From a virus (lineage: Duplodnaviria > Heunggongvirae > Uroviricota > Caudoviricetes): a stretch of DNA of 23,002 bases. Below, piece by piece: positions 2,525-21,634 of the stretch (position 1 is its first letter; every line of letters starts with the position of its first letter). The stretch is taken from IMG/VR virus record IMGVR_UViG_2740892209_000015; one strand, written 5' to 3'. Below the pieces are notes generated by a model. The model was not told the DNA's origin. It did no database searches and was given only the letters and a program-made list of their open reading frames with translations. The position numbers and the translations under genes were made by a program.

Positions 2525-3564
2525 AGGCTGAAGCATGGCGGGTCAGCAAACTTGGTGAAATACCTGATATAACGTTCGAGGAAGCGTGTGTCAGGTGGCT
2601 TGAAGAGAAAGCACATAAAAAATCACTGGACGATGACAAAAGCCGGATCGGATTCTGGCTTCAACATTTCGCAGGAATGCAACTAAGAGACATTACTGAA
2701 TCAAAAATTTATTCAGCAATGCAGAAAATGACGAACCGGCGTCATGAGGAAAACTGGAAACTCAGGGCAGAAGCATGCAGAAAAAAAGGGAAACCTGTTC
2801 CAGAATACACGCCAAAACCGGCGTCCGTTGCAACGAAGGCTACGCATCTTTCATTTATAAAGGCCCTACTAAGAGCCGCAGAGCGTGAATGGAAAATGCT
2901 GGATAAGGCACCAATTATTAAAGTGCCTCAACCAAAGAATAAACGGATCCGCTGGCTGGAGCCCCATGAAGCACAAAGGCTGATTGATGAATGTCCGGAG
3001 CCATTAAAGTCTGTTGTTGAATTTGCACTGGCAACAGGCTTAAGACGCTCGAACATCATCAACCTTGAATGGCAACAAATAGATATGCAGCGCCGGGTGG
3101 CATGGATAAACCCGGAAGAGAGTAAATCAAACCGCGCAATTGGCGTTGCGCTGAATGATACTGCATGTCGCGTATTGAAAAAACAAATCGGGAATCATCA
3201 CCGTTGGGTATTTGTGTACAAGGAAAGCTGTACCAAACCAGACGGAACGAAAGCGCCAACAGTAAGGAAGATGCGGTATGACGCAAACACAGCCTGGAAA
3301 GCGGCGCTGAGACGGGCTGGTATTGATGATTTCAGATTTCACGACTTGAGACACACCTGGGCAAGTTGGCTGGTTCAAGCCGGAGTCCCGTTGTCAGTGT
3401 TACAGGAAATGGGAGGCTGGGAGTCTATCGAAATGGTTCGTCGATATGCTCACCTTGCACCTAATCACCTTACCGAACACGCACGGCAAATAGACTCGAT
3501 CCTGAACCCATCGGTCCCAAATTTGTCCCAGTCAAAAAATAAGGAAGGTACTAATGATGTGTAA
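2401..3564 (+). CDS. int: Tyrosine integrase, P22 / DLP12 IntD-like lambdoid family (387 aa)
   Basis: N-terminus [21 protein letters not shown]... and C-terminal catalytic HxxR ([10 protein letters not shown]) and Tyr (VRRYAHL) motifs. Reads toward a thrW-like att core immediately downstream. Confidence 0.9.
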
Positions 3565-3578
3565 CTTATTGATTTAAA

Positions 3579-3597
3579 TGGTGCGATAATAGGAACA
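3579..3597. repeat. Degenerate direct repeat of the thrW 3' end (att core, junction between the two elements)
   Basis: AATGGTGCGATAATAGGA here versus AATGGTGCCGATAATAGGA at 21557-21575 (one indel). Lies 15 nt after the int stop. Confidence 0.7.
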
Positions 3598-3656
3598 ATA
3601 CACATAGGCGATAAGCTTTGTTTTTGTTGCCTTTTTTATTGTTCATTTTTTATAGA

Positions 3657-3681
3657 TACCCCCAAAAGTACCCCCATATCT
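3657..3681. repeat. TACCCCCA-type direct repeat, candidate integrase arm-type site (copy 1)
   Basis: ATACCCCCAAAAGTACCCCCAT; near-identical copy at 21425-21450 in the same orientation, each just inside one island boundary. Confidence 0.5.
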
Positions 3682-3795
3682 TTTTCCGCCCCTGAAATTT
3701 GGTTGTTATTCATACAGCATATCAGGCGGTAACGCTCTCCCTTTAACCCACTTATTGTATGATAGTGCTATCCCACAATAAGGAATCAGCCAGCC

Positions 3796-4155
3796 ATGAG
3801 AATGACCAGCCGTAAAAAAGAGATACTCAGTTATTTTGAGCCGGATAACCTAGAATGGGTGACAGGTGAGATTGGTGCGCCGCCGTTCGATGTGTCGGGC
3901 GTGGCCTACCTGCTTCATGGCATGGTGTCGTTCGATAAGCGCCACCAGCTCGAATCAACCCGGCGCACACTGGAAAGCATGGTTGCTGGTGGACTGCTTG
4001 AGCGGGTGACAGTGTATGAATCGCGTCAGGTACGGCGCGGCGGTGAGACTAACGCAACGGTCGTGCGCTACGGTTTACCCGGTCACTGCGCTGTTATGCG
4101 CGATACTGGCGGCGCTGATAACGCAATATCAGGCGAATACATGCGGGTCAGTTAA
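3796..4155 (+). CDS. Hypothetical protein (119 aa)
   Basis: ORF with AAGGAA upstream of the ATG. Convergent 8-nt overlap with the downstream minus-strand gene. No family recognised. Confidence 0.45.
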   Translation: MRMTSRKKEILSYFEPDNLEWVTGEIGAPPFDVSGVAYLLHGMVSFDKRHQLESTRRTLESMVAGGLLERVTVYESRQVRRGGETNATVVRYGLPGHCAVMRDTGGADNAISGEYMRVS

Positions 4156-4690
4156 GAGCCTGCAATCTGTCGTTAATGTTGTTCAGGTCGTAAACCCGGC
4201 GTTCAATATCCAGCATCAGGAAATCGTGGATCTCGGCCTGTTCAGGATTATCAGACTCTCTGGCCTGTAAGAGCAATTCATTGTAACCATGCAAACCACC
4301 CGAATTTTCCGCCGGGGTAGTGCCCTTCCCGCGCAAACAGCTAACAGGCTGGATACTGGTATCATGTGTTTGCTTCTCCAGCACAACAAGGCAATCCCAC
4401 CAGTCGCCAAAGTCATACGTGTAAACCAGCTTGTCACCCTCATTCTGGAGCGCCGCCCATAGTGGCGTGATTGCCGCGTTACCCATGCTTTCATCCTCAC
4501 CCCATACGCGATACTCGCTACCTGGATCACCTTTACGCCCTTTCTCGAACATATACAGGTGTTCGTCATTCCAGCCAAAAGCTAACTGGATCACGGCATG
4601 AAGTTTACTAAAGGGGATTTGCTCTGGAACCAGCACACGCCGCCATATTGGTGGTTTGCTGTCTCGGATGGTTATCTTTATCTGGTACAT
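4148..4690 (-). CDS. PRiA4b ORF-3-like family protein (180 aa)
   Basis: N-terminal signature IKITIRDSKPPIWRRVLVP...LHAVIQLAFGWNDEHLYMF matches the pRiA4b ORF-3-like domain as I recall it. Confidence 0.65.
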   Translation of the reverse strand: MYQIKITIRDSKPPIWRRVLVPEQIPFSKLHAVIQLAFGWNDEHLYMFEKGRKGDPGSEYRVWGEDESMGNAAITPLWAALQNEGDKLVYTYDFGDWWDCLVVLEKQTHDTSIQPVSCLRGKGTTPAENSGGLHGYNELLLQARESDNPEQAEIHDFLMLDIERRVYDLNNINDRLQALN

Positions 4691-4733
4691 GCGTCGTGAA
4701 CCAATAGTGTACGTTTAGGTGGGTATTTTTCTG

Positions 4734-5168
4734 CTACTGACCAGGATAGAGCTGATGTGCCGGGTCAAGCCAGACAATATGGAATACATTACCGATGAAA
4801 AATCCATGTATGCGACCATATTCATTGCGCGATATGGCAAATTGATAAGGTGTATAACTCTGAAACTGTTCATTCAAATGCTGAAATCCCTTAGGTTCAG
4901 ATGTAGTTTGCCAATCAATCGGATGTGACTTCAACGAACCACCGCGATCGGTGGTGAACTCTCGTTCAGTCATAGTGGAAAGGTCTTTGAGGCGGTCTAA
5001 CACCTTGCAAAAATAAACAGGATTCTGAGCGCTGAAAGTAAATTTCTCATGCGCCGCATCGATATACCGAAAAGAAAAGTTGATGGTCGTTATGCCTGAA
5101 CCTGTTCCCCCAGGCACTATTTTTGTTTGCGAGGGTGCAATCTTCGACGCCCTGATTCTTTTCGCCAT
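4734..5168 (-). CDS. Hypothetical protein (144 aa), candidate toxin partner of the upstream Panacea-domain protein
   Basis: Start codon 2 nt after the stop of the upstream gene (tight coupling). No family recognised. Confidence 0.55.
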   Translation of the reverse strand: MAKRIRASKIAPSQTKIVPGGTGSGITTINFSFRYIDAAHEKFTFSAQNPVYFCKVLDRLKDLSTMTEREFTTDRGGSLKSHPIDWQTTSEPKGFQHLNEQFQSYTPYQFAISRNEYGRIHGFFIGNVFHIVWLDPAHQLYPGQ

Positions 5169-5170
5169 AT

Positions 5171-5626
5171 TTAGGAAGCCATCGAACGATAAAACTCAGC
5201 CGTTACACTTTTATCAATAACATTCTTGCACGGCGCATCTGATGGAACCCCTTCACGGGCCTCCAGCCACGGCTTTTCTTGGTGCGTCATCTGCTCCAGC
5301 TCATAAGCTGTATAACCGCCAAATACCTCATAGATTTCCTTTAGATGCTTTGACACATTCGCAGGTAACTCAGGGCAGGCAATCTCTTCGTCTATTGAGC
5401 GCCATTTGTAATCTGCAAATCTGGTATACAAATCTCTGGCTACAGGGCCATGTACCCATGCTTCAAACTTGTCAGCAACCAGTTCTTCGCCATCATTCAG
5501 CGCCATGAACCAAGCATCAGCATAGAACACCATTTTTTGCAGTTTCAGCGGGGTCATAACATCCCCATGCTCTTGAGCAAAGCAAAGCAGGTAATCCGCT
5601 ACGCTGTTAAGGGTTGTAACTGCCAT
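5171..5626 (-). CDS. Panacea-domain (DUF4065, SocA-like) protein, putative antitoxin (151 aa from the internal start)
   Basis: KLQKMVFYADAWFMALN...FEAWVHGPV...LYTRF matches the Panacea/DUF4065 signature. AGGAG RBS 7-8 nt before the ATG at 5626; the longer ORF starting at 5857 has no RBS. Confidence 0.65.
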   Translation of the reverse strand: MAVTTLNSVADYLLCFAQEHGDVMTPLKLQKMVFYADAWFMALNDGEELVADKFEAWVHGPVARDLYTRFADYKWRSIDEEIACPELPANVSKHLKEIYEVFGGYTAYELEQMTHQEKPWLEAREGVPSDAPCKNVIDKSVTAEFYRSMAS

Positions 5627-5947
5627 TATCCAATCTCCTGCCGTATGTTTTCGTCTATAACTGTCCACTACCGTTAATAATCGCATATAACCACGGGTAT
5701 TGCCCATCGTAAAATGCCATTTAAAGATTCTGCGTGATGGCTCACCATCCACCGCGCAAGATACCCGGTGCGTTTGGCTGATAATCCGCAATTTGGTTGA
5801 AACCGTCCTGGAAACCTCAAGTTTGGAAACCAGCGACTTGCATCGTAGCTTTGCCATTCGGCGGTCATAGTTACTGCTATATCCCTTTATTGGCGAGACC
5901 TGCGAGAGGTTTTGTTGTTCGAATATATAAAGGTGAATAAAGGTAAT

Positions 5948-6133
5948 CTACCTGCGCGGCGCAGGCTTCTTCCACTGGTAGGCGGGTGATCGCATCATTT
6001 CGCGAAATTTGTCACGCCGGGCTATATTGGCATTAACTGAGCGTTCTATCTCCCGTTGATCTGCCGGGGTTAGCTGGTGGCCTTCGTGCTCCAGTTTGGC
6101 GGTGGTCAATAAAGCTATTTCGCGTGGTGTCAT
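5948..6133 (-). CDS. Hypothetical small protein (61 aa)
   Basis: AGAGGG RBS-like sequence upstream of the ATG; basic C-terminus. No family recognised. Confidence 0.4.
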   Translation of the reverse strand: MTPREIALLTTAKLEHEGHQLTPADQREIERSVNANIARRDKFREMMRSPAYQWKKPAPRR

Positions 6134-6429
6134 ACGTCATACCCTCTGGAAGGATGAAACACGCCCGGATTAAATTTCATTTTTCGCGGGTATAAAAAAC
6201 GATGGGGCGGGCAGTCCCGGATAGTCAGGGCTGTAGAGATTTGACTACCCCCTCCCCACTGGATTCAGGTTACTGCTATTCCGTTAAGCGCTGCTTACGG
6301 GGATAGCTGCGTTGTGATTTTGACCATTCAGGTCGCCGCTATTTCCTCACCGATTGGGTGCTACGCGCGCGCGTACTTGTCCCGAAATACCAGAAACCGC
6401 CAGCCAGAGGATGATTTCCCTCTGGTGGT

Positions 6430-6711
6430 CTACCTTTGCCTCTTGCCGCCATTTAACCGGAAGGCGTTACCGTTCGGTTGCGCTATCCCCATGCGGTGTT
6501 GCGTTTCGGTAACAGCTTTATGCAGGTCGCCAAATTCCTCAACCTTCACGGGCGGGCGCTTCACGTTCTCCAGACACGTTTCACGGCGGCGCTTTATCCA
6601 TTCCCGATCATCGTCCTCGCTGCATAACAGCATGACTTCCATCCATCGTGCGGCAGCTCTCCGGTATAGCCCTTTTGACTCCAGCTCTTCAGCTTTCCTG
6701 TCCCTTATCAT
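6430..6711 (-). CDS. PerC-family transcriptional activator-like protein (93 aa)
   Basis: AEELESKGLYRRAAARWMEVM resembles the PerC family core. GAGAGG RBS and a TATAAT hexamer lie immediately upstream, abutting the left iteron cluster. Confidence 0.6.
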   Translation of the reverse strand: MIRDRKAEELESKGLYRRAAARWMEVMLLCSEDDDREWIKRRRETCLENVKRPPVKVEEFGDLHKAVTETQHRMGIAQPNGNAFRLNGGKRQR

Positions 6712-6740
6712 TTCTGCCTCTCAGATTATATAGATAAGCA

Positions 6741-6875
6741 AAAAGGTGTTGGTTCAGTTGGTTCAGTTGGTTCAATTTGTAAAGATCGTTGTTTTTATTA
6801 TGTTTTTTCTAAAATATTGAACCAACATCAACTCATTTTGAACCAACACAGCCCAGCTCTGAACCAACAACACAG
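6741..6875. repeat. Iteron cluster L (origin-like): 3 tandem GTTGGTTCA, AT-rich spacer, 3 inverted TGAACCAAC
   Basis: 6741-6785 is a perfect 45-bp inverted repeat of 12982-13026. Tandem 9-mers at 6748-6774; inverted copies at about 6818, 6839 and 6860; AT-rich core 6786-6816. Confidence 0.85.
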
Positions 6876-6970
6876 CGATAGCTTTGTGATTGGCCCGTTA
6901 TTTTCTGGCTGATATTTGATCGTATAACAGTGTTATACAGTGATATACTGTATGGATATTACTCACTGAT

Positions 6971-7426
6971 ATGGTCTTTGCAATGAGCAAATCTAATCTG
7001 GTCGCGTTCCGCATCCCATCTGAATTGCAGGATGAGTTTAATCGGTCTGTTCTCGCTTCTGGAGGGGATAAAACCTCCTGGCTTGTTGATGCGATTCGCA
7101 TGAAGCTGGGACAGCCGGAAAAGTCTATTGATTCACGAATGCTTGGGCTGGTGGAGCGCATGGAAAAAGCTGCTGCGTCGCTTATTGCCGGAAAGCCGAA
7201 CATCCCACCAAAGCCATATAACGAAACGGCAGTTATAAAGATCATTGCCGATACCATCCGACAGGGATTTGATAATGGGCGTGTGATAGCTGAACGGATC
7301 AATGAAGCAGGCTATCAAACAAAAGCTGGTAAAGCGTGGGATAAAGATATTTACAGCGCGTGGAAGCGTCAGGGAAGCAATGCTGAAAAGTTAAAAGCGG
7401 TGATTGATTGTAAGGTCAGCGTATAA
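6971..7426 (+). CDS. Ribbon-helix-helix (Arc/CopG-like) DNA-binding protein with a C-terminal recombinase-like HTH region (147-151 aa)
   Basis: N-terminal SKSNLVAFRIPSELQDEF is an RHH beta-strand/helix signature. C-terminal VIAERINEAGYQTKAGKAWDKDIYSAWKR resembles the DNA-binding motif of serine-recombinase 'recombinase' domains. Start is ambiguous (6971 or 6983). Confidence 0.6.
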   Translation: MVFAMSKSNLVAFRIPSELQDEFNRSVLASGGDKTSWLVDAIRMKLGQPEKSIDSRMLGLVERMEKAAASLIAGKPNIPPKPYNETAVIKIIADTIRQGFDNGRVIAERINEAGYQTKAGKAWDKDIYSAWKRQGSNAEKLKAVIDCKVSV

Positions 7427-7505
7427 ACATGAGTGCCCATTGGAAAGCTGCTTGGGCCAATACCTTTATACACCAGCAGGTGGTGACGATAGGTGAGGAT
7501 CAGGA

Positions 7506-7727
7506 ATGAAAGGCAGAACGCCACACATTGAACATCAAGCCAACCACTTCTCGGATGTTCGCAATGAGATGATTGCCATTCGCGGTGATATGCACGGCTT
7601 GGAGCGTCGAATTATTGATAAGATTGATGAAAATAGAGATAAGGCCAGTGAAAATCAAAAGTGGATCATCGGCCTGTTGATTTTATCAATTCTTATCCCG
7701 CTACTTATCGCATTGGTCACAAAATGA
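7506..7727 (+). CDS. Small membrane protein (73 aa), coiled-coil plus C-terminal TM helix, XhlA-like topology
   Basis: GGTGAGGA RBS. C-terminal WIIGLLILSILIPLLIALV hydrophobic helix after a charged helical region. Confidence 0.55.
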   Translation: MKGRTPHIEHQANHFSDVRNEMIAIRGDMHGLERRIIDKIDENRDKASENQKWIIGLLILSILIPLLIALVTK

Positions 7728-8251
7728 ATATCCAATGTGTATGCTGTCGATGCTACGCGCGCGTACTTGTCGCAAAATATCAGGCAAAGGCCAGATTCAG
7801 AATGTCGTGATAACCACCAGCACAACATGAGATGTCATGTAACGCGATTTATCACGTCAGATACATGTGATTGGTGTACCCGCATAAAACATTGTCATAG
7901 CGCGTCCTGTGCGCATATACGCCGATAATCAACACATCACCACCACTCTGTCTCATGTAGAGAACAGTTTTATGGTATCCCCCCGCCATCGTGTGCATAC
8001 TGGTCGGACGTAGTTGCAAAATTTTTTGCAACTGATACCCCTCGCACGCGTACTTGTCTCGAAATTGGTGTTTTGCTGTGGCAGTGATATCAGAAAAATC
8101 TTCCTGTTTCACATAAAGCGGATATGTGCGCACTGTAACGGCCCCATCAACGGGGATCGGATTTGAAATCCCGACCCAAGCTATGTACCAAATGCCATGT
8201 CTTGGATATATGATGATTGCCATTCTAAACAACGCTAAAGGGAGGGTTGGT

Positions 8252-8711: not shown

Positions 8712-10817
8712 TTATTGAGCTTCCTTTTGCGATGCTTGTGCTGCTGTGGTCAGTGATTGTGTGACCGTACTGATCGCTCTGTCATATGCTGTGCTACCTT
8801 TTGGCGTATTTGCCAGACGTAACAAGGCATTTCGTATAACAGGGCTTTCGTATGCCTTCGCTGCTCCGCCTACGACACCAGCAGCAGGAACAACAAACGC
8901 AGCCGTTTTTAGCATCCCCGCTAATACTGCTGCGTTTATGATGCCACCACCAACTAACAATCCATAAAGCTGCTGACCATTTAAGTTTTGAACGTTCGCT
9001 TTTGCCGCGTGTCTTGTATCGTTGAGGTATTTAATAACGCCGTCCAGTTCCTTTCCATGTATGCCTTTAAAGAAAGTTGCTGATTGCTTCCTGTTCCGGT
9101 GTAACGCATTAATAAACTTCTCAACACTGATATTTCCAGACGGATCAGTCGCCTTATCTACAGCATTCTGAACTATGGCTGCTCGTGCGTTTTGCCTACC
9201 ATTGTCATCCAGAAGCCTGTAAAGCTGAGAACGTTCTGATGGGCTTTGGCTAAAAACAAGTTTTGTTACATCCTCAGGCGTGGCCTTGCCGCTGGCTATT
9301 GCCTTTTGAACGCGCGTTCTTCCCATCATGTCATTGAATTTAGACCATGAGCGATCAACCCTTGCCATATTAATAGCTTCGTCTGCTCCAAGATTTTTGG
9401 CTACGGCTTTTTTCATATCCGCCGTATATGCCTTGTAGATAATATCGCTGGCTTTCTGGAGCGTATCTTTATCAACAGTGTCAGATGACGCCATAAATCG
9501 CTTTCGAAGATCGGTTCTGTTTTCCCTCGCCAGACGCAGGTCATTTGGTCCGCTGGTGATATCGTCTTTAAATTGCTGCAAGACTTTTACCGCGGCTCTA
9601 TCCTGAGATTTGCCCGGGCGGCTTAACACGGCAATCTGATTGTCGATAGCTTTTACCGTGTTTGAGAGATCGACAGGGGTATCCCCCATAGCGTCAATTA
9701 TGCGGTTATATCGCTTTCCTGCTGCCTCAATGAATTTTTGTTGCCCTTTAGTCGCAGATTCATAAAGCTGTTTATCAGAAATGCCACCCAGACCATCGCT
9801 AAATGTTCTGACTAAATTTTCTCGTGCTTGTTGTTGATTCAGCCGATTCTTACCGGTTCCAAAAAAAGGAACTCTTTCGCCTAATGTCTGAGCCTGACTC
9901 TGCATAAAGGTTTTATCTTTCAGCATGTCACTGGTCATTAACGGCAGATTTCTTTCCGATGCAAAGTCGACAGCAGCCTTTGCTTCAGGCGACATATCAC
10001 CACGAACAGCCCTCGAAACCGCACTCGCTGTATTTTCCAGCCCCTTACCAATACCACCAATGCCAGCAGAAATTACCGTTTGTAACGGATCAATATCTTC
10101 TCCACCAGCGAGGCTGGTGGCTCCCTGTAGTGCTAAATCTGTAGCTGCTGATTTCCCTATGGCCCCCAGCACCGTTCCGGCCCTGCCCGCTGGTGTAAAC
10201 GCCAGCGCATTAGCCAGAAACGATGCCACGTCTTGCGGCGATAAACCCGGCTTGTTCAGAGCATAATCACCGGATGGCAGGGAAACGATAGTGTTACCCT
10301 TCTCATCCTGCCTTAATTTCGCTCCCATGCTCTGAAGAATCTTTTCCTGAGATGCGTCAGAGCCGAAAAGTTGAGACCATCGAGCTTTTAGAGCATCCAT
10401 GCTGAGTGAGGTTAACTCTGGGGCAAGGTCGACATTTTGCAGTCTCTCCATCTCTGGAGTCATTCGGCTTTCGCCTGTTATAGCATCGCGCATCGCAGCC
10501 CCAAGACTGGCTCCCTGTTCTGCTGAACGCTCAAGCCCCTCTCTTTGCTGAGTAGCTAACTTTGCATACCCTGACGCAATAGAATTATCAGATGATGTAT
10601 GTTGAATATTTTGAGTTGCTGATTGGGATCGGTCTATTTCATTCGTTGATGGTAGTGGATAGGCAGCATAAAAAGCCTGCTTAGCCTGCTCTACACTTTC
10701 TCCGGCTTGCGGGGCAACGACTTCATTGAAGTATTGCTCCTGAGCCTGCGCTTTTTGTTCTGGTGCTAACGCCTGATACTGTGGAGAGGCGATAACATCT
10801 TTCCATGCTTTAGCCAT
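8712..10817 (-). CDS. Large uncharacterised protein (701 aa); A/Q/K-rich, predicted helical, C-terminal hydrophobic hairpin
   Basis: Long ORF with GGGGTGA RBS, start overlapping the upstream stop (TAATG). Two adjacent hydrophobic stretches near the C-terminus (LYGLLVGGGIINAAVLAGML / AAFVVPAAGVVGGAA). No domain recognised. Confidence 0.8.
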   Translation of the reverse strand: MAKAWKDVIASPQYQALAPEQKAQAQEQYFNEVVAPQAGESVEQAKQAFYAAYPLPSTNEIDRSQSATQNIQHTSSDNSIASGYAKLATQQREGLERSAEQGASLGAAMRDAITGESRMTPEMERLQNVDLAPELTSLSMDALKARWSQLFGSDASQEKILQSMGAKLRQDEKGNTIVSLPSGDYALNKPGLSPQDVASFLANALAFTPAGRAGTVLGAIGKSAATDLALQGATSLAGGEDIDPLQTVISAGIGGIGKGLENTASAVSRAVRGDMSPEAKAAVDFASERNLPLMTSDMLKDKTFMQSQAQTLGERVPFFGTGKNRLNQQQARENLVRTFSDGLGGISDKQLYESATKGQQKFIEAAGKRYNRIIDAMGDTPVDLSNTVKAIDNQIAVLSRPGKSQDRAAVKVLQQFKDDITSGPNDLRLARENRTDLRKRFMASSDTVDKDTLQKASDIIYKAYTADMKKAVAKNLGADEAINMARVDRSWSKFNDMMGRTRVQKAIASGKATPEDVTKLVFSQSPSERSQLYRLLDDNGRQNARAAIVQNAVDKATDPSGNISVEKFINALHRNRKQSATFFKGIHGKELDGVIKYLNDTRHAAKANVQNLNGQQLYGLLVGGGIINAAVLAGMLKTAAFVVPAAGVVGGAAKAYESPVIRNALLRLANTPKGSTAYDRAISTVTQSLTTAAQASQKEAQ

Positions 10818-12283
10818 TAATCACCCCATAGTGAAGAAAAGTTACTGCTGGCTGCTGGCTGTGATACCTGCTCAGATTGCGGCAATGTCTGCGACGAAGA
10901 AGAAGTTCCTCTGTCAACTGCTGAAATAACCCGCAAAGCATCATAAGTTCGACCAGAAGCAGCTTTCAGCGAATTGAACTGGTTTTCCATCTTCCGGCGC
11001 TTGGTATCAATGGTTTTTGTGGAGTCGCCAGGCTGAGGGAAATACATTTGATAATATTTTGACATTTCAGCAGGTGCGATAGCTGCCCCTGTTTCCTGAC
11101 GGAGTATTGCCATTATTGCGTCATTAGCATTAACAACGTATTGCTGCTCTGCTGGGCTGAGCGTTAAGTTAGCCAGCGTCCCATTACCCAAAGCATTATT
11201 AATGATCGCCACTCGCTGTGGGCTAAGCTGGTCTTTCAGTGTATCTATTGAATCAAGAGCATCCCTAACCCTGTATGCAAATCCAGCAGCTTTTTTAGCC
11301 CCTTCTGGCGACTTTTCCATGATCTTTTGGGCTGTTGGCAAAGCTATTGGACGAAACCCATCTCCAGATATTGGCTGGTTTAGTTTTCCCTGCTCTTCAC
11401 TTCCGTCTGTGTAGTATTTTGTGACAGTGCCATCATCGTTTTCTCTAACACTCATTAATTTTTTGGTGTTTGTATTAATTCCAGCCGCTGCCGCAAATGC
11501 CGCCGCCCCCTCTGGATCAGCCTTTAACATTTGCGCGTACTGATTGTAATTCTGCATTGCTGCTGTTGGTGCATATGCTGACGTTAACGCATTTGCTCGG
11601 CTAATATCCTGCCCTCTCGCCTGAAGTGCTTCACCAGCTTTATTGCTGCGAATCGTCTCTGCCAACTCGCCACGCTCAATATCCCGACCCTCCATTCGAT
11701 CTTTGATATCGAAGTACTTCTCATGACCGAGAGAAAACAGCGCCAGATTACCTGCGAAATGCTGGAAGCCCTGCGGGTCATTAACCTGCATTTCAGCAAT
11801 AGTTTCTGGAGGGATACCTAAACGACGCATCTCCTGCTCATTATCCATCATGAACCTGCCAAATGCGCCCGGACCAAGCGATGAGGCTACCTGTGCTTTA
11901 AGCGCCAGATTGCCATAATCATCCCTTTGAGCATCATCGACATAACTCATCCCTTTACGGACTTCCTCAAACTCTTCGGGGAATGCTGTAATAAGATTAC
12001 GCATCTGCTCCCTGTCGCCGGACGCATAAGCATCTGCATAACCTTTCTGGAATGCCGCTTTACGCTCCTGCTGTTGCTGCTGCTTATAAATGTCAGCAAC
12101 TCCAGCCAGACCACGAAGGCCTGTCAGAGCAACGTTATTTGCACCTGATCGAGCCAGTTCATTGTTTTCGCGGATCAGACCAAGCGTTGCGTTAATGTCG
12201 CTTGCCTTTGGCGCATTCTCGTTTTGCGCACCAATGCCAGCCAGAAAACCACCAGAATTAATACCCTGTTGCCACGTAGCCAT
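10817..12283 (-). CDS. Large uncharacterised protein (~488 aa); poly-Q stretch, A/G/Q-rich
   Basis: Long ORF. ATG at 12283 is 4 nt after the stop of the 57-aa ORF; the track's GTG at 12295 is the alternative start. No domain recognised. Confidence 0.75.
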   Translation of the reverse strand: MATWQQGINSGGFLAGIGAQNENAPKASDINATLGLIRENNELARSGANNVALTGLRGLAGVADIYKQQQQQERKAAFQKGYADAYASGDREQMRNLITAFPEEFEEVRKGMSYVDDAQRDDYGNLALKAQVASSLGPGAFGRFMMDNEQEMRRLGIPPETIAEMQVNDPQGFQHFAGNLALFSLGHEKYFDIKDRMEGRDIERGELAETIRSNKAGEALQARGQDISRANALTSAYAPTAAMQNYNQYAQMLKADPEGAAAFAAAAGINTNTKKLMSVRENDDGTVTKYYTDGSEEQGKLNQPISGDGFRPIALPTAQKIMEKSPEGAKKAAGFAYRVRDALDSIDTLKDQLSPQRVAIINNALGNGTLANLTLSPAEQQYVVNANDAIMAILRQETGAAIAPAEMSKYYQMYFPQPGDSTKTIDTKRRKMENQFNSLKAASGRTYDALRVISAVDRGTSSSSQTLPQSEQVSQPAASSNFSSLWGD

Positions 12284-12287
12284 AAAT

Positions 12288-12461
12288 TTACCCACGTCCA
12301 GTTAAAGTGTAAGCCAGCGCCTTATCCATTAATCCCCGAGCAATTTCGTGGATCGTTGGCGCAACTCCTACCTCTGATTTTTTACGCTGCTCCTCCTGAA
12401 TTTTCTTTATCGCTTCCATTTGCTTCTCACTTATCAATACCGGCTTTACTGAAATAGCCAT
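12288..12461 (-). CDS. Small protein (57 aa), possible RHH-like DNA-binding protein; first gene of the operon
   Basis: Below the ORF-track size cutoff; found manually. AAGGGGG RBS 5 nt upstream of the ATG. Sequence MAISVKPVLISEKQMEAIKKIQEEQRKKSEVGVAPTIHEIARGLMDKALAYTLTGRG. Confidence 0.5.
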   Translation of the reverse strand: MAISVKPVLISEKQMEAIKKIQEEQRKKSEVGVAPTIHEIARGLMDKALAYTLTGRG

Positions 12462-12475
12462 AACGCCCCCTTAGA

Positions 12476-12495
12476 ACTGTATAAAACAACAGTTA
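12476..12495. promoter_or_regulatory. LexA-box-like palindrome (CTGT-N8-ACAG) overlapping a TATAAT -10 element upstream of the 57/488/701 operon
   Basis: AACTGTATAAAACAACAGTT on the plus strand. The minus-strand TATAAT (plus 12495-12500) lies directly adjacent, about 35 nt upstream of the ATG. Confidence 0.45.
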
Positions 12496-12554
12496 TTATA
12501 GTTTCACAAATCGCAATATTCATCATCGTAATTGCAAAATATGAAACAAACAGC

Positions 12555-12590
12555 ACAAAAAAATGCCACCGCTCAGTAGCTGGTGGCATC
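12555..12590 (-). terminator. Rho-independent terminator (minus strand) between the iteron cluster and the cargo operon
   Basis: Plus strand shows an A7 run followed by hairpin TGCCACC-N11-GGTGGCA. On the minus strand this is a GC-rich hairpin followed by a U-run. Confidence 0.55.
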
Positions 12591-12904
12591 GTTCTGTGTG
12601 TCAGGTTTTGACAGGTTTTTTATGGACTCTAAAAACTATATTTATGGTGTCGCATTACTCTTCACGGCAGGCGCTTTTCAGTTCTGCCCTTGCTTCTGGC
12701 TCCATTGGTAATTTGATTCGCGATCAGCTATGCGGATGGTTTGCTGAACAGGCATAACAACTTCTCAGGGGCTGTTTTCTGAACTACGAAAATTTCGTAT
12801 TGCTCACTTTCAAAACGTCACGCCCTTGTACACAGGATTTTACGAAAGTCTCGTAAAACACTCTCTGATGCCAGCCAGGTGTTGTGCGCATCAATTCAGT
12901 CACA

Positions 12905-13026
12905 TTGTGTTGGTTCAAAATACCGTGTTGTTGGTTCAGTGTTGGTTCAATAAAAAGAATAAAATCCTTATAAAACAATACTCTTTACAAATTGAACCAA
13001 CTGAACCAACTGAACCAACACCTTTT
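12905..13026. repeat. Iteron cluster R (origin-like), inverted copy of cluster L; 22 nt downstream of the primase stop
   Basis: 12982-13026 is a perfect 45-bp inverted repeat of 6741-6785. Additional GTTGGTTCA copies at about 12908, 12930 and 12941; AT-rich core between. Confidence 0.85.
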
Positions 13027-13044
13027 CTACGCACATGAATAAGC

Positions 13045-15801
13045 TCATTCTTCAGATGAGTTGTAATCTCCTGGCTGGTAATTGAGTACATAAACGTTTA
13101 TTTGTCGTCCCTGAATACGTGGTGATTTTCTTTGGTATCCACGACCGCTGTTTGGTGGGGTTAGCATCCCGGCTTTTTTCAACACTTCAGCAAACTGTTT
13201 TGCGTTGAAACCACATGCGATCTCCTTTTCAAATGTGGCCGGGAATGTGTAGAAAATCATTGGACTTTCGTCATGTTCTCCACGCTGACGGTATCCGGCT
13301 AAATCTTTGATGGGCAAATCTGCCGGGCTGTATGGAAATGGTGCAAAACGGCTAAGCCCATAGGCATTAAGAAATGCCTCCGTTTGTTCAATAATCTGCT
13401 GATGCTCTTTGTTACCTGTGCCGAACTCGCGCAACCATGCGTTATAGCTGTGCTGTATCGCATCACGGCATGTCTGAGCATCCCAGCCTGTTACAACCTC
13501 GCCTAACAACAATGCGGCCTCCAGAATGGCAAATCGCGCGGCTACACGGTGAACCTGCTCACCATAATCGGATGGGATCAGGCTTCTCCATCTGCTTTCG
13601 CAATCACGAACAGTTTTAATAGCCTGTTGCTGGTGGTCTGCCAGCCATTTAATCCACTCACGCCCGGCTGCGCCATGGTGATGCTGGTAAGCGTCTTTCA
13701 GTGCGTCTGCGTGCTGTTTTCCGTTCTGGTAATCGTGAAAGCGTACTGCTTTACTCAACGGAATATTCAGCAGTCGCACCAGTTGCCCGGCTTTGGTTTT
13801 TCGCCCGGAAGTAGCGATAAATGTTTCTAAATCCATTTCTCCGGTGCTGATTGCCACTGTACGCCAGCGTTTTAGATCCCGGTTTCCACCATCTTTAGCG
13901 CCTTGCAGTTTCCCTACACCGTTAAATAACGCATAGGCAGACTGTGAAACGCTGACAGGATCAGCGCCCTGACCAACTTCATCAAGCGGCATTAATCCGT
14001 CATTGTGGGCGGCGGCCTCATTTGCCAGCCCCAGCGCGGTTCCGTACCACGTCAGCCGCAGTAAATCAGGGTTGCCGTATAAGCTGCTCGCCACGTTTGC
14101 CGTGGTGGTCTTACCCGCGCTCGACTGCTCATAGAAATGAATGCCGAACCCGTCAGCGCCCACCAGCCCAATCAATGGCGCTGCCAGTGCTGCGCCGATC
14201 CCGGTCATCATTGAATAGTTACCAAAGGCCAGACGCGCCACGTTATCACGCCAGCTTTTCGCGCTCCCTGAGACGGTATATCCGGCTGCGGCTGAGCTTC
14301 TCCCGCTGAACAGCACAGGATTTTCAGGTGTTCCGATGATTTCCCCATCAGGCATGATGTACGCTCCGCATTGCCAGCCAGTGGCATGAGCAACACGCCA
14401 CAATTCACGAGAGCCACTGCGTTGTAGCCAGTCTGCCAGTATTGCTCTGAGGCTGCTTTTGGTCGTGACATTTACCCCACCAGCTTTAAGTGTGCGCCAT
14501 CCTTCACGTTCACCAATATCAGCCAGTGGAATGGCAGCGGTTGTCGGCGTTTCAGAACCAAACGACAGCCAGCGAAGAATGAGATACTGGTCTTTATCGT
14601 CTCTGCCAGTACCGATAACGCTTAACGGAGAACATAACCAGCTTTCGTTATTGATGATTTCTCCACTCTGGCTGTCAGCTCTCGGAGATACCCAATAAAT
14701 ACCATCCTCGCGGCTTTCTATTCTTGGTTTCAGTGGGTCGGTATCCATAACCTTAAAATCGCTTCCCTCAATGGTCTGTGGCTCCTGTTTCACGCCATTA
14801 CCCTGTGGTTGGTACATTGACTTATTGAACGCTTCTGTGGCGCATTTAATGCCGTGTTTTTGGTGGTAATCATTCCAGTCTGCTTTGTGATCTGTCGGGG
14901 GTAATGCCACCCATCCAGAAACAGATAAAGCTGCTTTTTCTGCTGCTATTCTCCCCGTGTTTTGTCTTCCTTCGCTGTGGTCGTTATCCGCAGCAATGAT
15001 GATTTGTGCTGAAGGAAATTTATCCCGCAGTACCTGGGCGACATATAACAGGTTCCCGGCATCAATCGCCGCCACTGTCAGCGCCTCTGGACGAATTAAA
15101 TGGACAGATAATGCCGTTGCCAGCCCTTCTGCGATTAAGATGCTCTGTGTTGTTTCTGGTGCGTTTATGGCGTGATATGCCCCTCGCTTTGCTGAACCTG
15201 TCAGGAGTCTTTTTTCACCATGTGAGGTAATAGTCTGTGCTGCTGTGACTGCGCCGGATTTATCCACCAGCGCCAGCAACAGAGATCCATCGGGCAACAC
15301 GGGGAATGTAAAATCACCTACCCCTTTCGCAACCAGATAATCAGATTTGCCGTTTACAGCCTTTCTGCGCATGTCATCAAACTGACGGGAAAACGTATCC
15401 CGTCTTTGTTGTTCGTCCTTCTCTGCCCTTTTCAGGCGCTCCTGTTCGCGTCGCTGGCGCTCGGTTTCCAGTTGTTCCCGTTTCTGGCTGGTGGCTTCTG
15501 GTGTTTCCGTTGTCCGGTAATCAATACCCAGAACATCAGCGGCAAGAAGCGCCGCCTCTGTTGTGTCGCAGTTATTTACGCGTTTAATTAAATCCAGCCC
15601 ATCACCAGCGCCGCACTGATTACAGATGAAGCTACCGCGCCCGTTGTCATCGAACCGGAATCGATCTTTGCCCCCACATGCAGGGCAGGGAGCATGACGG
15701 CGCGGAGAGTCAGGGACATTTATGTTCAGGCAGCCCAGCACATGAGGCCAGTTGTTTTCAGACGCACTGATAACCTGACGGATAAGATCAATGTTTCGCA
15801 T
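13045..15801 (-). CDS. Replicative primase / replication initiation protein (918 aa): N-terminal zinc ribbon, TOPRIM-like domain, C-terminal NTPase-like region; P4 alpha / PICI Pri-Rep analogue
   Basis: CPACGG...CNQCG zinc ribbon. TOPRIM-like acidic motifs (LIAEGLATA; IIAADNDHSEG). ACGGGGG RBS. Iteron cluster lies immediately 3' of the gene. Confidence 0.8.
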   Translation of the reverse strand: MRNIDLIRQVISASENNWPHVLGCLNINVPDSPRRHAPCPACGGKDRFRFDDNGRGSFICNQCGAGDGLDLIKRVNNCDTTEAALLAADVLGIDYRTTETPEATSQKREQLETERQRREQERLKRAEKDEQQRRDTFSRQFDDMRRKAVNGKSDYLVAKGVGDFTFPVLPDGSLLLALVDKSGAVTAAQTITSHGEKRLLTGSAKRGAYHAINAPETTQSILIAEGLATALSVHLIRPEALTVAAIDAGNLLYVAQVLRDKFPSAQIIIAADNDHSEGRQNTGRIAAEKAALSVSGWVALPPTDHKADWNDYHQKHGIKCATEAFNKSMYQPQGNGVKQEPQTIEGSDFKVMDTDPLKPRIESREDGIYWVSPRADSQSGEIINNESWLCSPLSVIGTGRDDKDQYLILRWLSFGSETPTTAAIPLADIGEREGWRTLKAGGVNVTTKSSLRAILADWLQRSGSRELWRVAHATGWQCGAYIMPDGEIIGTPENPVLFSGRSSAAAGYTVSGSAKSWRDNVARLAFGNYSMMTGIGAALAAPLIGLVGADGFGIHFYEQSSAGKTTTANVASSLYGNPDLLRLTWYGTALGLANEAAAHNDGLMPLDEVGQGADPVSVSQSAYALFNGVGKLQGAKDGGNRDLKRWRTVAISTGEMDLETFIATSGRKTKAGQLVRLLNIPLSKAVRFHDYQNGKQHADALKDAYQHHHGAAGREWIKWLADHQQQAIKTVRDCESRWRSLIPSDYGEQVHRVAARFAILEAALLLGEVVTGWDAQTCRDAIQHSYNAWLREFGTGNKEHQQIIEQTEAFLNAYGLSRFAPFPYSPADLPIKDLAGYRQRGEHDESPMIFYTFPATFEKEIACGFNAKQFAEVLKKAGMLTPPNSGRGYQRKSPRIQGRQINVYVLNYQPGDYNSSEE

Positions 15802-17479: not shown

Positions 17480-17641
17480 GTGGCAGCCTCCTTGATTGAT
17501 GGTTTATAGCCACCGCCCAAGAGACCAATCTTGCTGGCGGTGGACTGTACGGAGTTGGCCTTACTGGCAATCAAGGAAACCAGCCTACCCGAAGGTAGCC
17601 CCATACAGCCCACCATTGATAAGGTGTGCGTGTGCGCCGAT

Positions 17642-17664
17642 ACAAAAAAAGACGCTGGCGCGTC
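17642..17664 (-). terminator. Candidate intrinsic terminator (minus strand) inside the long track ORF
   Basis: On the minus strand: hairpin GACGC-GCCA-GCGTC followed by a U7 run. Confidence 0.45.
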
Positions 17665-18102
17665 ATGTATCGCCTCGATTGTCAGCGGGAGGCCAATCCC
17701 GGCACCCGTTTTATGAGGTGCCTTATAACCATAAACCGTGTTGCCGCATAACGGCAAGCTCTTTTTTATGGACTCCGAAAACTCAGTATTGGAAGCACCA
17801 GATGCACAGTACATCGCGCTCATTTCGTTAACGTCACGCACGTGGACGAATGTTTTTGTGGAGTCACTACACGAGCGGAAGACATCATCTACGACCAGAA
17901 ATTTTCTGGCGCAGCCGCTGACCTTCTCAATGCTAATATCATCGCCCGAGATTTCTGGTATGGTTAAGGCATCCGTTCCGACCACCAGCAAATGATAAAC
18001 TTTGCTTGCATCTGCTGTATTAATGCCTGACTTTGCCGTCATATTGCTGGATTTTGGCGACATACCTGCCAGTGAAAATGTCTTCTTCTGGACGGTTAGC
18101 AT
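17642..18102 (-). CDS. Hypothetical protein, N-terminal ~150 codons of the long track ORF; 3' end unresolved
   Basis: ATG at 18102 with GGAGG RBS, 3 nt after the stop of the upstream gene. The first ~150 aa look protein-like, then composition degenerates. No in-frame stop before 17074. Confidence 0.35.
17741..17767 (+). terminator. Candidate intrinsic terminator (plus strand), implying a short antisense transcript
   Basis: Hairpin TTGCCG-CATAA-CGGCAA followed by GCTC and a T6 run on the plus strand. Confidence 0.4.
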
Positions 18103-19116: not shown

Positions 19117-19548
19117 TTAGGCGGCGTTAAACGCGTCCGGGTAGAGTTTCAGAATGTCGGCAATTTCCTGCTGAGAAAGTCCGTTGTGATCATTTATGTT
19201 CGCAAGATGGTTAATATGAGTGATCACTTTCAGAACATCACCACGGCAGGAGAAACGGTAGCGAAGGTGTGTTCCGATACCATCAGGATTCTTTTCGTCG
19301 ATACGCTCCAGAGTGATTCCAAGCTGGCGTTCTAACTCTGTTGCATAGTTACGACCAGAAGACAGACGGCAGTAGCGAAGAATGTCATTTTCTGTCCATC
19401 CCTCTATACCAGTACGCAGCATATAGACTCTGGCACGATGCTTTTTCGGTGTGCGCTTTGGTGCTTGAAGGGATTTTGTAAGGGGCGTAACATCAGATAC
19501 ACGAATATCTGAATTAGCCGCCTGTAATGGGCGGTTTTTCTTTTCCAT
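19117..19548 (-). CDS. Hypothetical protein (143 aa), possibly DNA-binding
   Basis: GAGGTGG RBS; start overlaps the alpA stop (TGATG). Basic N-terminus. Confidence 0.5.
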   Translation of the reverse strand: MEKKNRPLQAANSDIRVSDVTPLTKSLQAPKRTPKKHRARVYMLRTGIEGWTENDILRYCRLSSGRNYATELERQLGITLERIDEKNPDGIGTHLRYRFSCRGDVLKVITHINHLANINDHNGLSQQEIADILKLYPDAFNAA

Positions 19549-19751
19549 CAGGCCACCTCGTCTCTAGATTCTAATATACACTTCTCAATCCATTCATCTA
19601 TTTCAGACTCAACAAAAGCAATTGCCCGACTTCCAATTTTTACCTGTTTAGGGAACCTCCCCTGACTAATAAGACGATAAATCCATGCTTTGCTATAACC
19701 AGTTCGCCTTTGAACTTCAGAGAGACGAATTAATGAATTGTAATTAGCCAT
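19548..19751 (-). CDS. alpA: AlpA/Vis-family small HTH regulator (67 aa)
   Basis: MANYNSLIRLSEVQRRTGYSKAWIYRLISQGRFPKQVKIGSRAIAFVESEIDEWI is the AlpA-family pattern. Next to int, as in P4-like and CP4-57-like islands. Confidence 0.8.
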   Translation of the reverse strand: MANYNSLIRLSEVQRRTGYSKAWIYRLISQGRFPKQVKIGSRAIAFVESEIDEWIEKCILESRDEVA

Positions 19752-20178
19752 TTATTAATATCCTGTACTAATGACGCAATAACCCCCTCCTGCAACGAAT
19801 GGCGAGAGTTTTATTTGCGTCAAATGTCGAATACGCCAAAGACCACAATATGAAAAACATATTGCGGTCTTTTATAAAAGATAGTCAGATTGTTTTGGTT
19901 TGTTTGCTCCACAAGGGTAGAGCTACCCTGCATTTCGGCAGGATCACGCTATTAGGCGTGACATCCAGTAGTTTTAAAGAACAATTGCGCTTTGTCAGCG
20001 CCAAAGCCTGTTAAAGAACATTCCGCTTTTCAGCAGCGTAGAAGGCTCAATACACCTTCGTTTATAAAAGAGCGATTGCCCTTCTCCAGGGCTAACTGTT
20101 AAATAGCAATCCTCTGTGAGTTTTTATCAATCTACTCCCCTATACTTTAGTAAACCTCTGTATACTTGTCCAGTTGTT

Positions 20179-21393
20179 TCATGCGTGTTTTTCAAACACC
20201 ATATGCACCACATTTCCGCCATGCTCGAGAGAATCCATATAGTCGGCATACCATTGAAGCATCTCCCGCCGTCCATCCAGATATTGCGCATGGTTGTATG
20301 TGCCACGAATTGAGTTCTTATCAACGTGAGCGAGCTGCGTTTCTATCCACGCGGTGTTATAGCCCTGCTCATGCAAAATCGTGCTCATAGTGTGTCGGAA
20401 CCCATGACCAGTTACACGTCCAGCGTAGCCAATGCGCTTAAACACTTGGTTTATGCTGGCCTCACTCATTGTTTTCCTTGGATCATTGCGCCCGGGAAAC
20501 ATAAGAGGGTAATTGCCTGTTATTTCTCTAATCTTCCCAATAAGCGAAAGAGCCTGCTCAGACAATGGCACAATATGAGGCCGCCGCATTTTCATACGTG
20601 AAGCGGGTATCTCCCATATAGCCTTGTTGAAATCAATTTCATCCCATGATGCGCCACGTAGTTCGCCAGTTCGCAAGCCGGTGATAATCAGTAGACGAGC
20701 CGCCATAACAACCAATGCGCTTCCTGAGTAACTGGACAATGCCTTGAAAAAATCAGGTAATTCTTTGGTCGTAAGGAAAGGGTAATGATTAGATTCATGG
20801 CCTTGCATCGCGCTAGTAAGGTCTGGTGCAGGGTTATACTCTGCGCGACCAGTGACTATTGCATAGCGGAAAACTTCCCCGCACCGCTGCCTCACTTTTT
20901 TGGCTTTTTCTGTCGCACCGCGCCCCTCGATGCGCCGCAGCACATTCAGAAGTTCAAGTGGTTTGATTTCGGCGATTGGTTTTTTGCCAATGTAAGGGAA
21001 CACATCTTTGTTGAAGGCTTCGAGGATGTCTGAAGCATAACCAGCAGACCATTTTTTTAATTTGCTGCTGTGCCACTCAAGGGCAATATCTTTGAAGGTG
21101 TTGTTTAACTGCGTTTCCCGGGCAATCTTTTCCTCTCGTTTCGCTTCCATCGGATCGATACCACCAGCGATACCTCTTTTCGCATCTTCACGTTTTGCCC
21201 GAGCATCGGCTAGAGTAACCTCAGGATACACACCTAGTGCCAATAGCTTCTCTTTACCAGCTACACGATATTTAAGTCGCCAGTATTTACCTCCATTAGG
21301 TTTTACCAAGAGATACAAACCGCCACCATCGGCCAGCTTGTAAGCCTTCTCTTTTGGCTTGGCTGTGTCTATTTGACGGGCATTGAGTTTCAC
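20179..21393 (-). CDS. int: P4-family tyrosine integrase (404 aa)
   Basis: N-terminal MKLNARQIDTAKPKEKAYKLADGGGLYLLV and C-terminal GHGFRHT...YNHAQYLD(G)RREMLQWYAD match the P4/IntS integrase family. Immediately adjacent to the tRNA. Confidence 0.9.
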   Translation of the reverse strand: MKLNARQIDTAKPKEKAYKLADGGGLYLLVKPNGGKYWRLKYRVAGKEKLLALGVYPEVTLADARAKREDAKRGIAGGIDPMEAKREEKIARETQLNNTFKDIALEWHSSKLKKWSAGYASDILEAFNKDVFPYIGKKPIAEIKPLELLNVLRRIEGRGATEKAKKVRQRCGEVFRYAIVTGRAEYNPAPDLTSAMQGHESNHYPFLTTKELPDFFKALSSYSGSALVVMAARLLIITGLRTGELRGASWDEIDFNKAIWEIPASRMKMRRPHIVPLSEQALSLIGKIREITGNYPLMFPGRNDPRKTMSEASINQVFKRIGYAGRVTGHGFRHTMSTILHEQGYNTAWIETQLAHVDKNSIRGTYNHAQYLDGRREMLQWYADYMDSLEHGGNVVHMVFEKHA

Positions 21394-21558: not shown

Positions 21559-21634
21559 TGGTGCCGATAATAGGAGTCGAACCTACGACCTTCGCATTAC
21601 GAATGCGCTGCTCTACCAACTGAGCTATATCGGC
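21559..21634 (-). tRNA. thrW: tRNA-Thr (anticodon CGU)
   Basis: Reverse complement reads GCCGATATAGCTCAGTTGGTAGAGCAGCGCATTCGTAATGCGAAGGTCGTAGGTTCGACTCCTATTATCGGCACCA, 76 nt, with CGT in the anticodon loop and 3' CCA. Confidence 0.93.

Follow-up and report, generated by a model that had tools for sequence, protein, structure and literature searches.

The window, by which we mean the whole stretch of 23,002 nt analyzed here, carries an island of minus-strand genes next to a tRNA gene. Its genes and signals are as follows.

8712..10817, minus strand: homologue of the P22 gp16 ejection (DNA transfer) protein, 701 aa (phrog_770, 2.1e-161, full length)
10817..12295, minus strand: homologue of the P22 gp20 ejection protein (PF16928 Inj_translocase, 1.6e-84; phrog_917, 2.8e-144)
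12288..12461, minus strand: p57, 57 aa, first gene of the operon and core gene of the satellite family
12466..12472, minus strand: Shine-Dalgarno sequence AAGGGGG of the 57-aa gene, read from the sequence
12475..12494, no strand assigned: predicted LexA (SOS) box, reading AACTGTATAAAACAACAGTT on the plus strand and AACTGTTGTTTTATACAGTT on the minus (coding) strand
12495..12500, minus strand: putative -10 hexamer TATAAT, read from the sequence, directly adjoining the box
12518..12523, minus strand: weak -35-like hexamer ATGAAT (3/6 matches), 17 nt upstream of the -10, a presumptive assignment
12501..12517 and 12531..12547, no strand assigned: arms of an inverted repeat GTTTCA-N6-GCAAT that brackets the -35, candidate site of a second regulator
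12556..12589, minus strand: intrinsic terminator closing the primase transcription unit, ATGCCACC...GGTGGCAT and then T7
12907..13021, no strand assigned: putative replication origin, GTTGGTTCA(A/G) in three direct and then three inverted copies around an A+T-rich core
13045..15801, minus strand: primase-helicase with matches to Zn ribbon, Toprim and DUF927 domains
19548..19751, minus strand: AlpA-family regulator (PF05930, 7.4e-20)
20179..21393, minus strand: tyrosine integrase of the island (domain match)
21559..21634, minus strand: tRNA-Thr(CGT), the integration site (tRNA gene call)

Read along the minus strand from the right, the window presents tRNA-Thr, the integrase, AlpA, AntA/B and Ash-family genes, the primase, the iterons, the terminator and the promoter with the box. 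Gram-negative PICIs are laid out as int, alpA, pri-rep, an origin 3' of the replication gene and then helper-acting genes (PMC6092414). By the definition given in that work, the island possesses int, AlpA and a TOPRIM/DUF927 primase in the conserved order and all on the minus strand; the size taken for a PICI is about 12-15 kb. The original prediction compared the regulation with that of prophage morons; by its integrase, AlpA, primase, iterons and tRNA-Thr, the element is a PICI-type phage satellite and not a prophage with a moron. In PICIs the origin sits immediately 3' of the replication gene (PMC6092414), a position that the iterons of the window match, and the array at 12907-13021 is probably the replication origin of the satellite. 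In one respect the island departs from the PICI definition, as it carries homologues of the gp20 and gp16 ejection proteins, and we therefore name it 'PICI-type' and do not file it as a PICI member; the type element EcCICFT073 itself carries capsid and decoration homologues (PMC6092414). No att repeat of 17 nt or longer marking the left end of the island was found in the window.

E. coli TB354 has the same island, flanked there by yicC and dinD and not embedded in a prophage. An island of the same type constitutes the circular sequence NZ_CP148430.1 (L234; 12,152 bp), deposited as an E. coli plasmid, which contains int, AntA/B, an Icd-like gene, primase, a 100% identical p57 and PerC, and is devoid of gp20 and gp16. 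This record is probably an excised or episomal form of the satellite, and it is the one hint, an indirect one, that the island may be excised, replicated and packaged upon induction by a helper. Elsewhere in the window, Rfam profiles detected a C4 antisense RNA (79 bits) and an isrK sRNA (65 bits) at 17533-17620 and 17645-17721 on the minus strand, overlapping the 'Ash family' ORF, and in a sister island an Icd-like gene is annotated in the C4/isrK region. The arrangement resembles a P1-type immI module (C4, icd, ant) carried by a satellite. Left of the operon (positions 1-8000) are a second integrase (2401-3564, plus strand), a PRiA4_ORF3 protein (4148-4690) and a SocA/Panacea-domain protein (5171-5857), and three 28-nt direct repeats occur in this part and beyond it, at 6366, 7756 and 8043. 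This left part could belong to another element or be accessory DNA.

The operon downstream of the promoter had been described as one of unknown function; behind p57 it encodes the gp20 and gp16 homologues. Both proteins match their PHROG families, phrog_917 and phrog_770, over the full length and are members of them. The gp20-like protein scores 283 bits against PF16928 (cut-off 29.7), and the likely start of its gene is the ATG at 12283. The gp16-like product is named 'P22-gp16 family phage DNA ejection protein' in RefSeq; its identity to proteins of sequenced phages is at most 67% (phages N7 and HZ41), and it is 33-39% identical to those of Sf6 and the other P22-like phages listed. At the DNA level (8712-12295 compared), similarity to P22-like phages is limited to short stretches between the start of gp20 and the gp20/gp16 junction. 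A role of the operon in defence was considered and rejected, there being no PADLOC match.

The first gene of the operon is specific to these elements. No match to p57 was found in Pfam, PHROG, NCBIfam or PADLOC, no homologue was found by tblastn in 50,697 phage genomes, and neither a PDB profile search nor AF2 with Foldseek connected it with a known family. A full HMM search of 1.8 billion proteins yielded a p57 family of 55 clusters of small proteins (50-70 aa) with no link to a known family, and p57 is found only in satellites of this type. The predicted structure (AF2, pLDDT 76) has helices at residues 12-28 and 37-53 in a strand-helix-helix pattern. A ribbon-helix-helix (RHH) protein was tried as a candidate and set aside: the extended N-terminus and the two helices fit, and Pfam, NCBIfam, PDB profiles and Foldseek gave no RHH match, so that an RHH identity would be a guess from the structural model.

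On the minus strand the TATAAT hexamer (12500-12495) is followed by the box (12494-12475), by CTAAGGGGGCGTT with the Shine-Dalgarno sequence and by the ATG at 12461, so that 13 nt separate the box from the p57 start codon. This order, a TATAAT abutting the box just upstream of the ribosome-binding site of the 57-aa gene, is the one originally proposed, and it holds on the minus strand. The palindrome had been placed at 12476-12500; its CTGT-N8-ACAG core is present at 12477-12492 (CTGTATAAAACAACAG), and the box starts one base further to the left, at 12475. The box adjoins a conserved TATAAT and precedes the Shine-Dalgarno sequence, a place where bound LexA would block RNA polymerase at a predicted promoter with a putative start site and a weak -35.

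A scan of 12200-13200 for sigma-70 consensus promoters called none, the -35 matching at only 3 of 6 positions. We do not read this result as absence of a promoter, because the TATAAT is invariant and a terminator lies upstream; the weak -35 may mean that the promoter needs an activator, and LexA would then be one of two controls. A terminator-like hairpin with a T run is found at the same place in the relatives that have enough upstream sequence to compare. Since the box adjoins an invariant TATAAT just after a conserved terminator, the operon would form a separate transcription unit, whose only visible -10 is flanked by the box. The element GTTTCA-N6-GCAAT has two matches in the window, both at 12501-12547 and none elsewhere, and related elements are present in the relatives and in EcCICFT073; these repeats suggest a second regulator, either an activator or a repressor. 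Transcription from the promoter may accordingly require activation as well as release from LexA. A 22-nt direct repeat, TTTTTTATGGACTCTAAAAACT (91% identical), occurs at 12616-12637, just upstream of the terminator, and at 17762-17783, just upstream of isrK. A likeness between isrK and the sequence preceding the promoter was also considered, and it amounts to this 22-nt repeat only. In the intergenic region 12400-13100, Rfam gave only spurious miRNA matches, located on the iterons.

Nowhere else in the 23 kb is the CTGT-N8-ACAG pattern of the core at 12477-12492 matched exactly, and at least one match to the bare pattern occurs in 26 of 100 shuffles of the window. The core by itself is weak evidence; the full 20-mer is strong evidence. 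Six of its 20 positions depart from the idealised consensus, with CTG and CAG intact, and a search of the window with that consensus (TACTGTATATATATACAGTA) at three or fewer mismatches returned no match. As 6 mismatches are common to many real operators, we used the heterology index (HI) in place of a consensus search. The Lewis HI matrix was recovered by regression from 140 published sequence/HI pairs of candidate boxes of E. coli K-12 (PSOSP Table S1, PMC12527982), a procedure that is valid because HI is additive over positions. The resulting matrix is dyad-symmetric, and its fit is exact (rms error 2e-5; maximum leave-one-out error 8e-5).

With the recovered matrix, the box at 12475-12494 has an HI of 8.19. 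By exact convolution at the base composition of the window, an HI of 8.2 or lower has a probability of 2.1e-7 per position, which corresponds to 0.005 sites expected per 23-kb window and to about one per 4.6-Mb genome. One half-site is the consensus TACAG and the other AACAG, and in the imperfect one the preceding C at position 13 costs 2.5 HI units. LexA requires two dyad-symmetric CTG motifs exactly 10 bp apart, CTG-N10-CAG (PMC5999292), and this is the spacing found at 12477-12492. Published HI values include 4.31, 6.40, 6.98, 8.32, 8.80, 9.19, 12.09 and 3.34, and the binding class of the same table, which agrees with binding experiments in 24 of 24 cases, has its upper boundary at 13.6-13.9 (PSOSP Table S1, PMC12527982). 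We took an HI below about 13-15 as the mark of a LexA operator, a range within which the box clearly falls. The eight values are those of what we take to be recA (4.31), lexA operator 1 (6.40), uvrA/ssb (6.98), lexA operator 2 (8.32), uvrD (8.80), ruvA (9.19), polB (12.09) and dinD (3.34), and with these names the box lies between lexA operator 1 and lexA operator 2 or uvrD. The proposed fit to E. coli SOS boxes is thus borne out by HI scoring, with a value typical of a LexA operator of normal strength, and the reading of the box as a LexA operator is well supported in silico. Two weaker LexA-like sites were observed: one at 11269-11288 (HI 10.47; 0.03 expected by chance per window), within the gp20-like coding sequence and also present in locus L002, and one at 20156-20175 (HI 12.9; 0.15 expected per window), at the end of the integrase gene.

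Related loci, 151 in number, were collected from genomes, IMG/VR and metagenomes through an alignment of p57 homologues. They have in common a module of primase, terminator, promoter, a motif starting with CTGTAT two bases after the -10, Shine-Dalgarno sequence and p57. Most of 105 distinct relatives have TATAAT, or a sequence close to it, as the -10, and TATAAT is invariant in all 30 close haplotypes. These 30 haplotypes (49 loci), defined by a p57 identity of at least 79%, also have invariant CTGT and ATACAG: none of the 8 CTGT/ACAG columns varies, against 59 of 112 flanking columns. The four central spacer bases (TGTT or ATCG) and both outer bases vary among them. The Fisher test on half-site conservation used loci preselected by the CTGT-N8-ACAG pattern, and its value depends entirely on the fact that every locus whose p57 is at least 79% identical has the box and fits that pattern. 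Conserved half-sites with a drifting spacer and drifting flanks are the pattern expected of a LexA site. Four sequence types of the box occur in the relatives, all with the correct spacing and with HI values of 7.4-12.4; among them are CTGTATAAAATAACAG in Pantoea and Lonsdalea (HI 7.37) and CTGTATAAATAAACAG in Pantoea coffeiphila (HI 8.22). The 91-nt segment with promoter and box was found in 480 of 5426 complete E. coli genomes (about 9%).

A shorter form of the motif occurs in about half of the more distant relatives. When 94 distinct loci were classified, 28 had a LexA-competent box, 46 had TATAAT-NN-CTGTATAAATATCAGG and 20 had other sequences. The second form is a near-perfect LexA box with one base of the right arm missing (CTG-N9-CAG), and by the spacing rule (PMC5999292) it should not be a canonical LexA site. 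This form, which as CTGTATAAATATCAG is the one that relatives carry most often, was seen in Serratia, Rahnella, Erwinia, Pantoea and Chimaeribacter; examples (L036, L051 and L009, among loci L003-L152) precede the p57 start codon by roughly 20-45 nt. The N9 motif is more conserved than its flanks and is therefore under constraint; since it is one base short and nevertheless conserved, across the wider family this stretch must be constrained by something besides canonical LexA binding. In a tree of primase C-termini the N10 forms are scattered among N9 forms, and the most basal branches carry N9. Such scatter points to repeated conversion or exchange of promoter modules and, together with the frequency of N9, makes LexA control a trait of lineages and not a constant of the family. 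It is mainly because of the N9 form that our confidence in the LexA reading is not higher.

An independent LexA-grade box is found in the PICI type element, EcCICFT073, a model PICI of E. coli that has been studied by experiment. In EcCICFT073 the sequence AACTGGATGAACATCCAGTT is a perfect dyad with an HI of 6.81 (L153, 5410-5429; NC_004431.1, about 1385409-1385428) and is the sole site with an HI of 13 or lower in that island. A TATAAT ends 4 nt ahead of it, and 33 nt beyond it begins a 68-aa gene, with the capsid (c1499) and decoration (c1500) homologues further downstream. The promoter, which follows the primase, the origin and a few genes, has TTTCA/GCAAT repeats of the same kind as in the window. 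CTG-N10-CAG is kept in 80 of 81 EcCICFT073-related IMG/VR loci, with HI values of 5.4-9.6 and changes at tolerated positions only; the remaining locus has a one-base insertion. The spacer of this box is unrelated to that of the window box, so that LexA-grade boxes occupy equivalent functional positions in two satellite lineages. A comparison of p57 with the 68-aa protein did not support homology (hhalign probability 4%). In the EcCICFT073 papers (PMC6092414, PMC6739421) mention of LexA is confined to the title of a SaPI paper that they cite, and no LexA site is mentioned.

The N9 loci bear most directly on the possibility that the stretch is a family-wide promoter-proximal motif (CTGTAT, an A/T run and CAG) that is recognized by a satellite or helper factor or serves as the initial transcribed sequence, the LexA fit in the E. 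coli lineage being a by-product without LexA control. The presence of the N9 form in 46 of 94 distinct loci, its conservation relative to its flanks with a spacing that a canonical LexA site cannot have (PMC5999292), and its occurrence on the most basal branches of the primase tree are in line with this view. On the other hand, the E. coli box CTGTTGTTTTATACAG and the type B box CTGTATCGTTATACAG have many inner positions that do not agree with the N9 motif and keep the bases and the spacing that LexA needs, the four separate N10 types all end in ACAG, and a LexA-grade box recurs in EcCICFT073 around an unrelated spacer. An HI of 8.2 or lower would arise as a by-product with a probability of only 2e-7 per position. 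A non-LexA factor explains the N9 loci and not the window lineage, because the conserved bases there are those of LexA and the rest of the N9 motif is lost; we consider a mere by-product unlikely. It is likewise unlikely that LexA can bind the box with little physiological effect, trimming basal expression of an operon driven by read-through or by an activator that depends on the helper or on AlpA and works via the GTTTCA/GCAAT repeats. Such an arrangement would agree with the weak -35 and the lack of a called consensus promoter, with the conserved repeats that bracket the -35 in both the window and EcCICFT073, and with the induction of Gram-negative PICIs, which proceeds via helper-induced AlpA and not via SOS (PMC6092414); satellites also need expression after helper infection, when the SOS signal may be absent. 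Read-through is opposed by the terminator directly upstream, and the box, being under purifying selection in two satellite lineages, should matter.

Two further explanations fare worse. The palindrome could act as a hairpin of the 5'-leader RNA, affecting stability or translation, instead of as a DNA operator, and when fully transcribed it does form a 6-bp stem of -8 kcal/mol. This stem has a z-score of no more than -1.4; transcription that starts 6-8 nt past the -10 would miss the left arm, and no structure remains (z = +0.4); N9 relatives form none; and the changes in relatives are not compensatory and respect the LexA half-sites. We therefore reject the hairpin as very improbable, its stem being not significant, lost with a normal start site and absent from the N9 relatives. 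A chance match without function, which the occurrence of the bare pattern in 26% of the shuffles might suggest, is the least probable of all: only 0.005 sites of this HI are expected, the site is exactly at the -10 hexamer, and it is conserved in 480 E. coli genomes as well as in metagenomic relatives. Score, position and conservation effectively refute it.

We thus favor, with a probability of roughly 0.7, a functional LexA operator as the explanation of the palindrome; the operator would act on the promoter of the operon that comes after the origin in a PICI-type satellite integrated at tRNA-Thr. In an undamaged cell, a LexA dimer on 12475-12494 would cover the stretch from the edge of the -10 through the expected transcription start and keep the operon of p57, gp20-like and gp16-like genes off. 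DNA damage would activate RecA and cause LexA to cleave itself, leaving the promoter free, and the same SOS signal would induce SOS-sensitive P22-like helper prophages. The satellite versions of gp20 and gp16 would in this way be made during assembly of the helper capsid (procapsid). In this scheme we infer LexA binding at the box, the TATAAT as the active -10, loading of the products into helper virions and a second factor at the GTTTCA/GCAAT repeats.

The cargo found behind p57 in the relatives consists mostly of helper DNA-delivery proteins: P22-type ejection proteins in 21 distinct loci, tape-measure proteins in 11, SLT-domain internal virion proteins in 14, and baseplate hub and SLT proteins in 17. 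Some sister islands have the whole P22 14-7-20-16 module in this place (DUF2824, P22_gp7). Loci L005, L013, L021, L036, L051, L066 and L101 exemplify such cargo (14-7-20-16 module, TMP_3 tape-measure, SLT-domain and baseplate hub proteins), and the ORFs checked next to it in these loci included no further structural genes. It can tentatively be speculated that enterobacterial PICI-type satellites possess a post-origin slot, made of a conserved promoter, p57 and cargo, for their own versions of the helper proteins that carry DNA across the envelope, that this slot is wired to LexA in several lineages, including those of the window and EcCICFT073, and that it would re-equip helper particles with the injection machinery of the satellite; we hold this as a possibility and not as the expected outcome. 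In P22, the mutations by which mutants evade superinfection exclusion by SieA have been mapped to C-terminal parts of gp16 and gp20 (PMC10883804), and gp20 and gp16, the two SieA-escape proteins, are the ones kept by the window island. A possible gain, which we offer as a hypothesis, is that re-equipped particles evade SieA-type exclusion and enter recipients that already have a helper prophage. The broader pattern suggested by the sequences is thus that of LexA boxes in two Gram-negative PICI lineages together with a slot for DNA-delivery proteins.

If LexA gates the operon, Gram-negative PICIs and staphylococcal SaPIs would share a second, SOS-dependent control of virion-directed genes, and this SOS control would operate apart from the AlpA switch, which depends on the helper; the PICI papers searched make no mention of it. 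Gating by LexA, if true, would also provide a simple handle on the role of the satellite ejection proteins, by means of mitomycin C and lexA alleles. The gp20 and gp16 alleles of satellites could affect which cells are entered by satellites and by the defence and virulence genes they carry. In the literature covered, which did not include subscription journals, we found no report of LexA control in Gram-negative PICIs and nothing on satellites carrying ejection or tape-measure proteins.

Among known elements, EcCICFT073 resembles the window island in its int, alpA, primase, origin, promoter with GCAAT/TTTCA repeats, TATAAT, LexA-grade box, small gene and homologues of helper structural proteins. 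It differs in the box itself (CTGGATGAACATCCAG, HI 6.81) and in its cargo of capsid and decoration homologues for lambdoid helpers. Chromosomal SOS operators of E. coli, such as lexA operator 2, uvrD and dinD, are like the window box 20-bp imperfect CTG-N10-CAG palindromes that overlap a promoter, a predicted one in the case of the window, and the HI values are comparable (8.19 for the window box versus 8.32, 8.80 and 3.34, the gene names being assumed as above). The chromosomal operators govern repair functions, whereas the window box belongs to a mobile element and to virion-type proteins.

Colicin operons, the tum antirepressor of coliphage 186 and the Gifsy antirepressors all borrow the host LexA to time genes of mobile elements to DNA damage, and in colicin promoters the LexA box is likewise located just downstream of the -10. 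The products in those systems are toxins or antirepressors that trigger induction, whereas those of the window operon are structural DNA-delivery proteins. In addition, the induction switch of the window element (AlpA) is separate from the operon with the LexA box. The 14-7-20-16 module of P22 is represented by gp20 and gp16 homologues in the window and by the full set in sister islands. In P22 the ejection genes are late genes within the long late operon of a complete phage, whereas in the window they stand alone behind a satellite-specific gene and a predicted LexA box, in an element that has no capsid, tail or lysis genes.

Operon I of the SaPIs, the pathogenicity islands of Staphylococcus aureus, is under LexA control according to Ubeda et al. 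(2007, Mol Microbiol 65:41), as cited in PMC6092414. Going by that citation, it is, like the window operon, a satellite operon that follows the primase/rep gene and the origin and whose products act on helper virion production. The hosts of SaPIs are Gram-positive and have a LexA motif other than that of E. coli. The two operons also differ in content, which in the SaPIs comprises terS, capsid-size and interference genes and in the window ejection proteins. The original prediction likened the regulation to that of colicin operons; SaPI operon I fits better, being a LexA-controlled post-origin operon of a satellite, and by analogy it is the closest counterpart of the window operon. In both, repression by host LexA would time expression to the SOS induction of the helper prophage, which for the SaPIs, as cited, is an experimental result and for the window a prediction.
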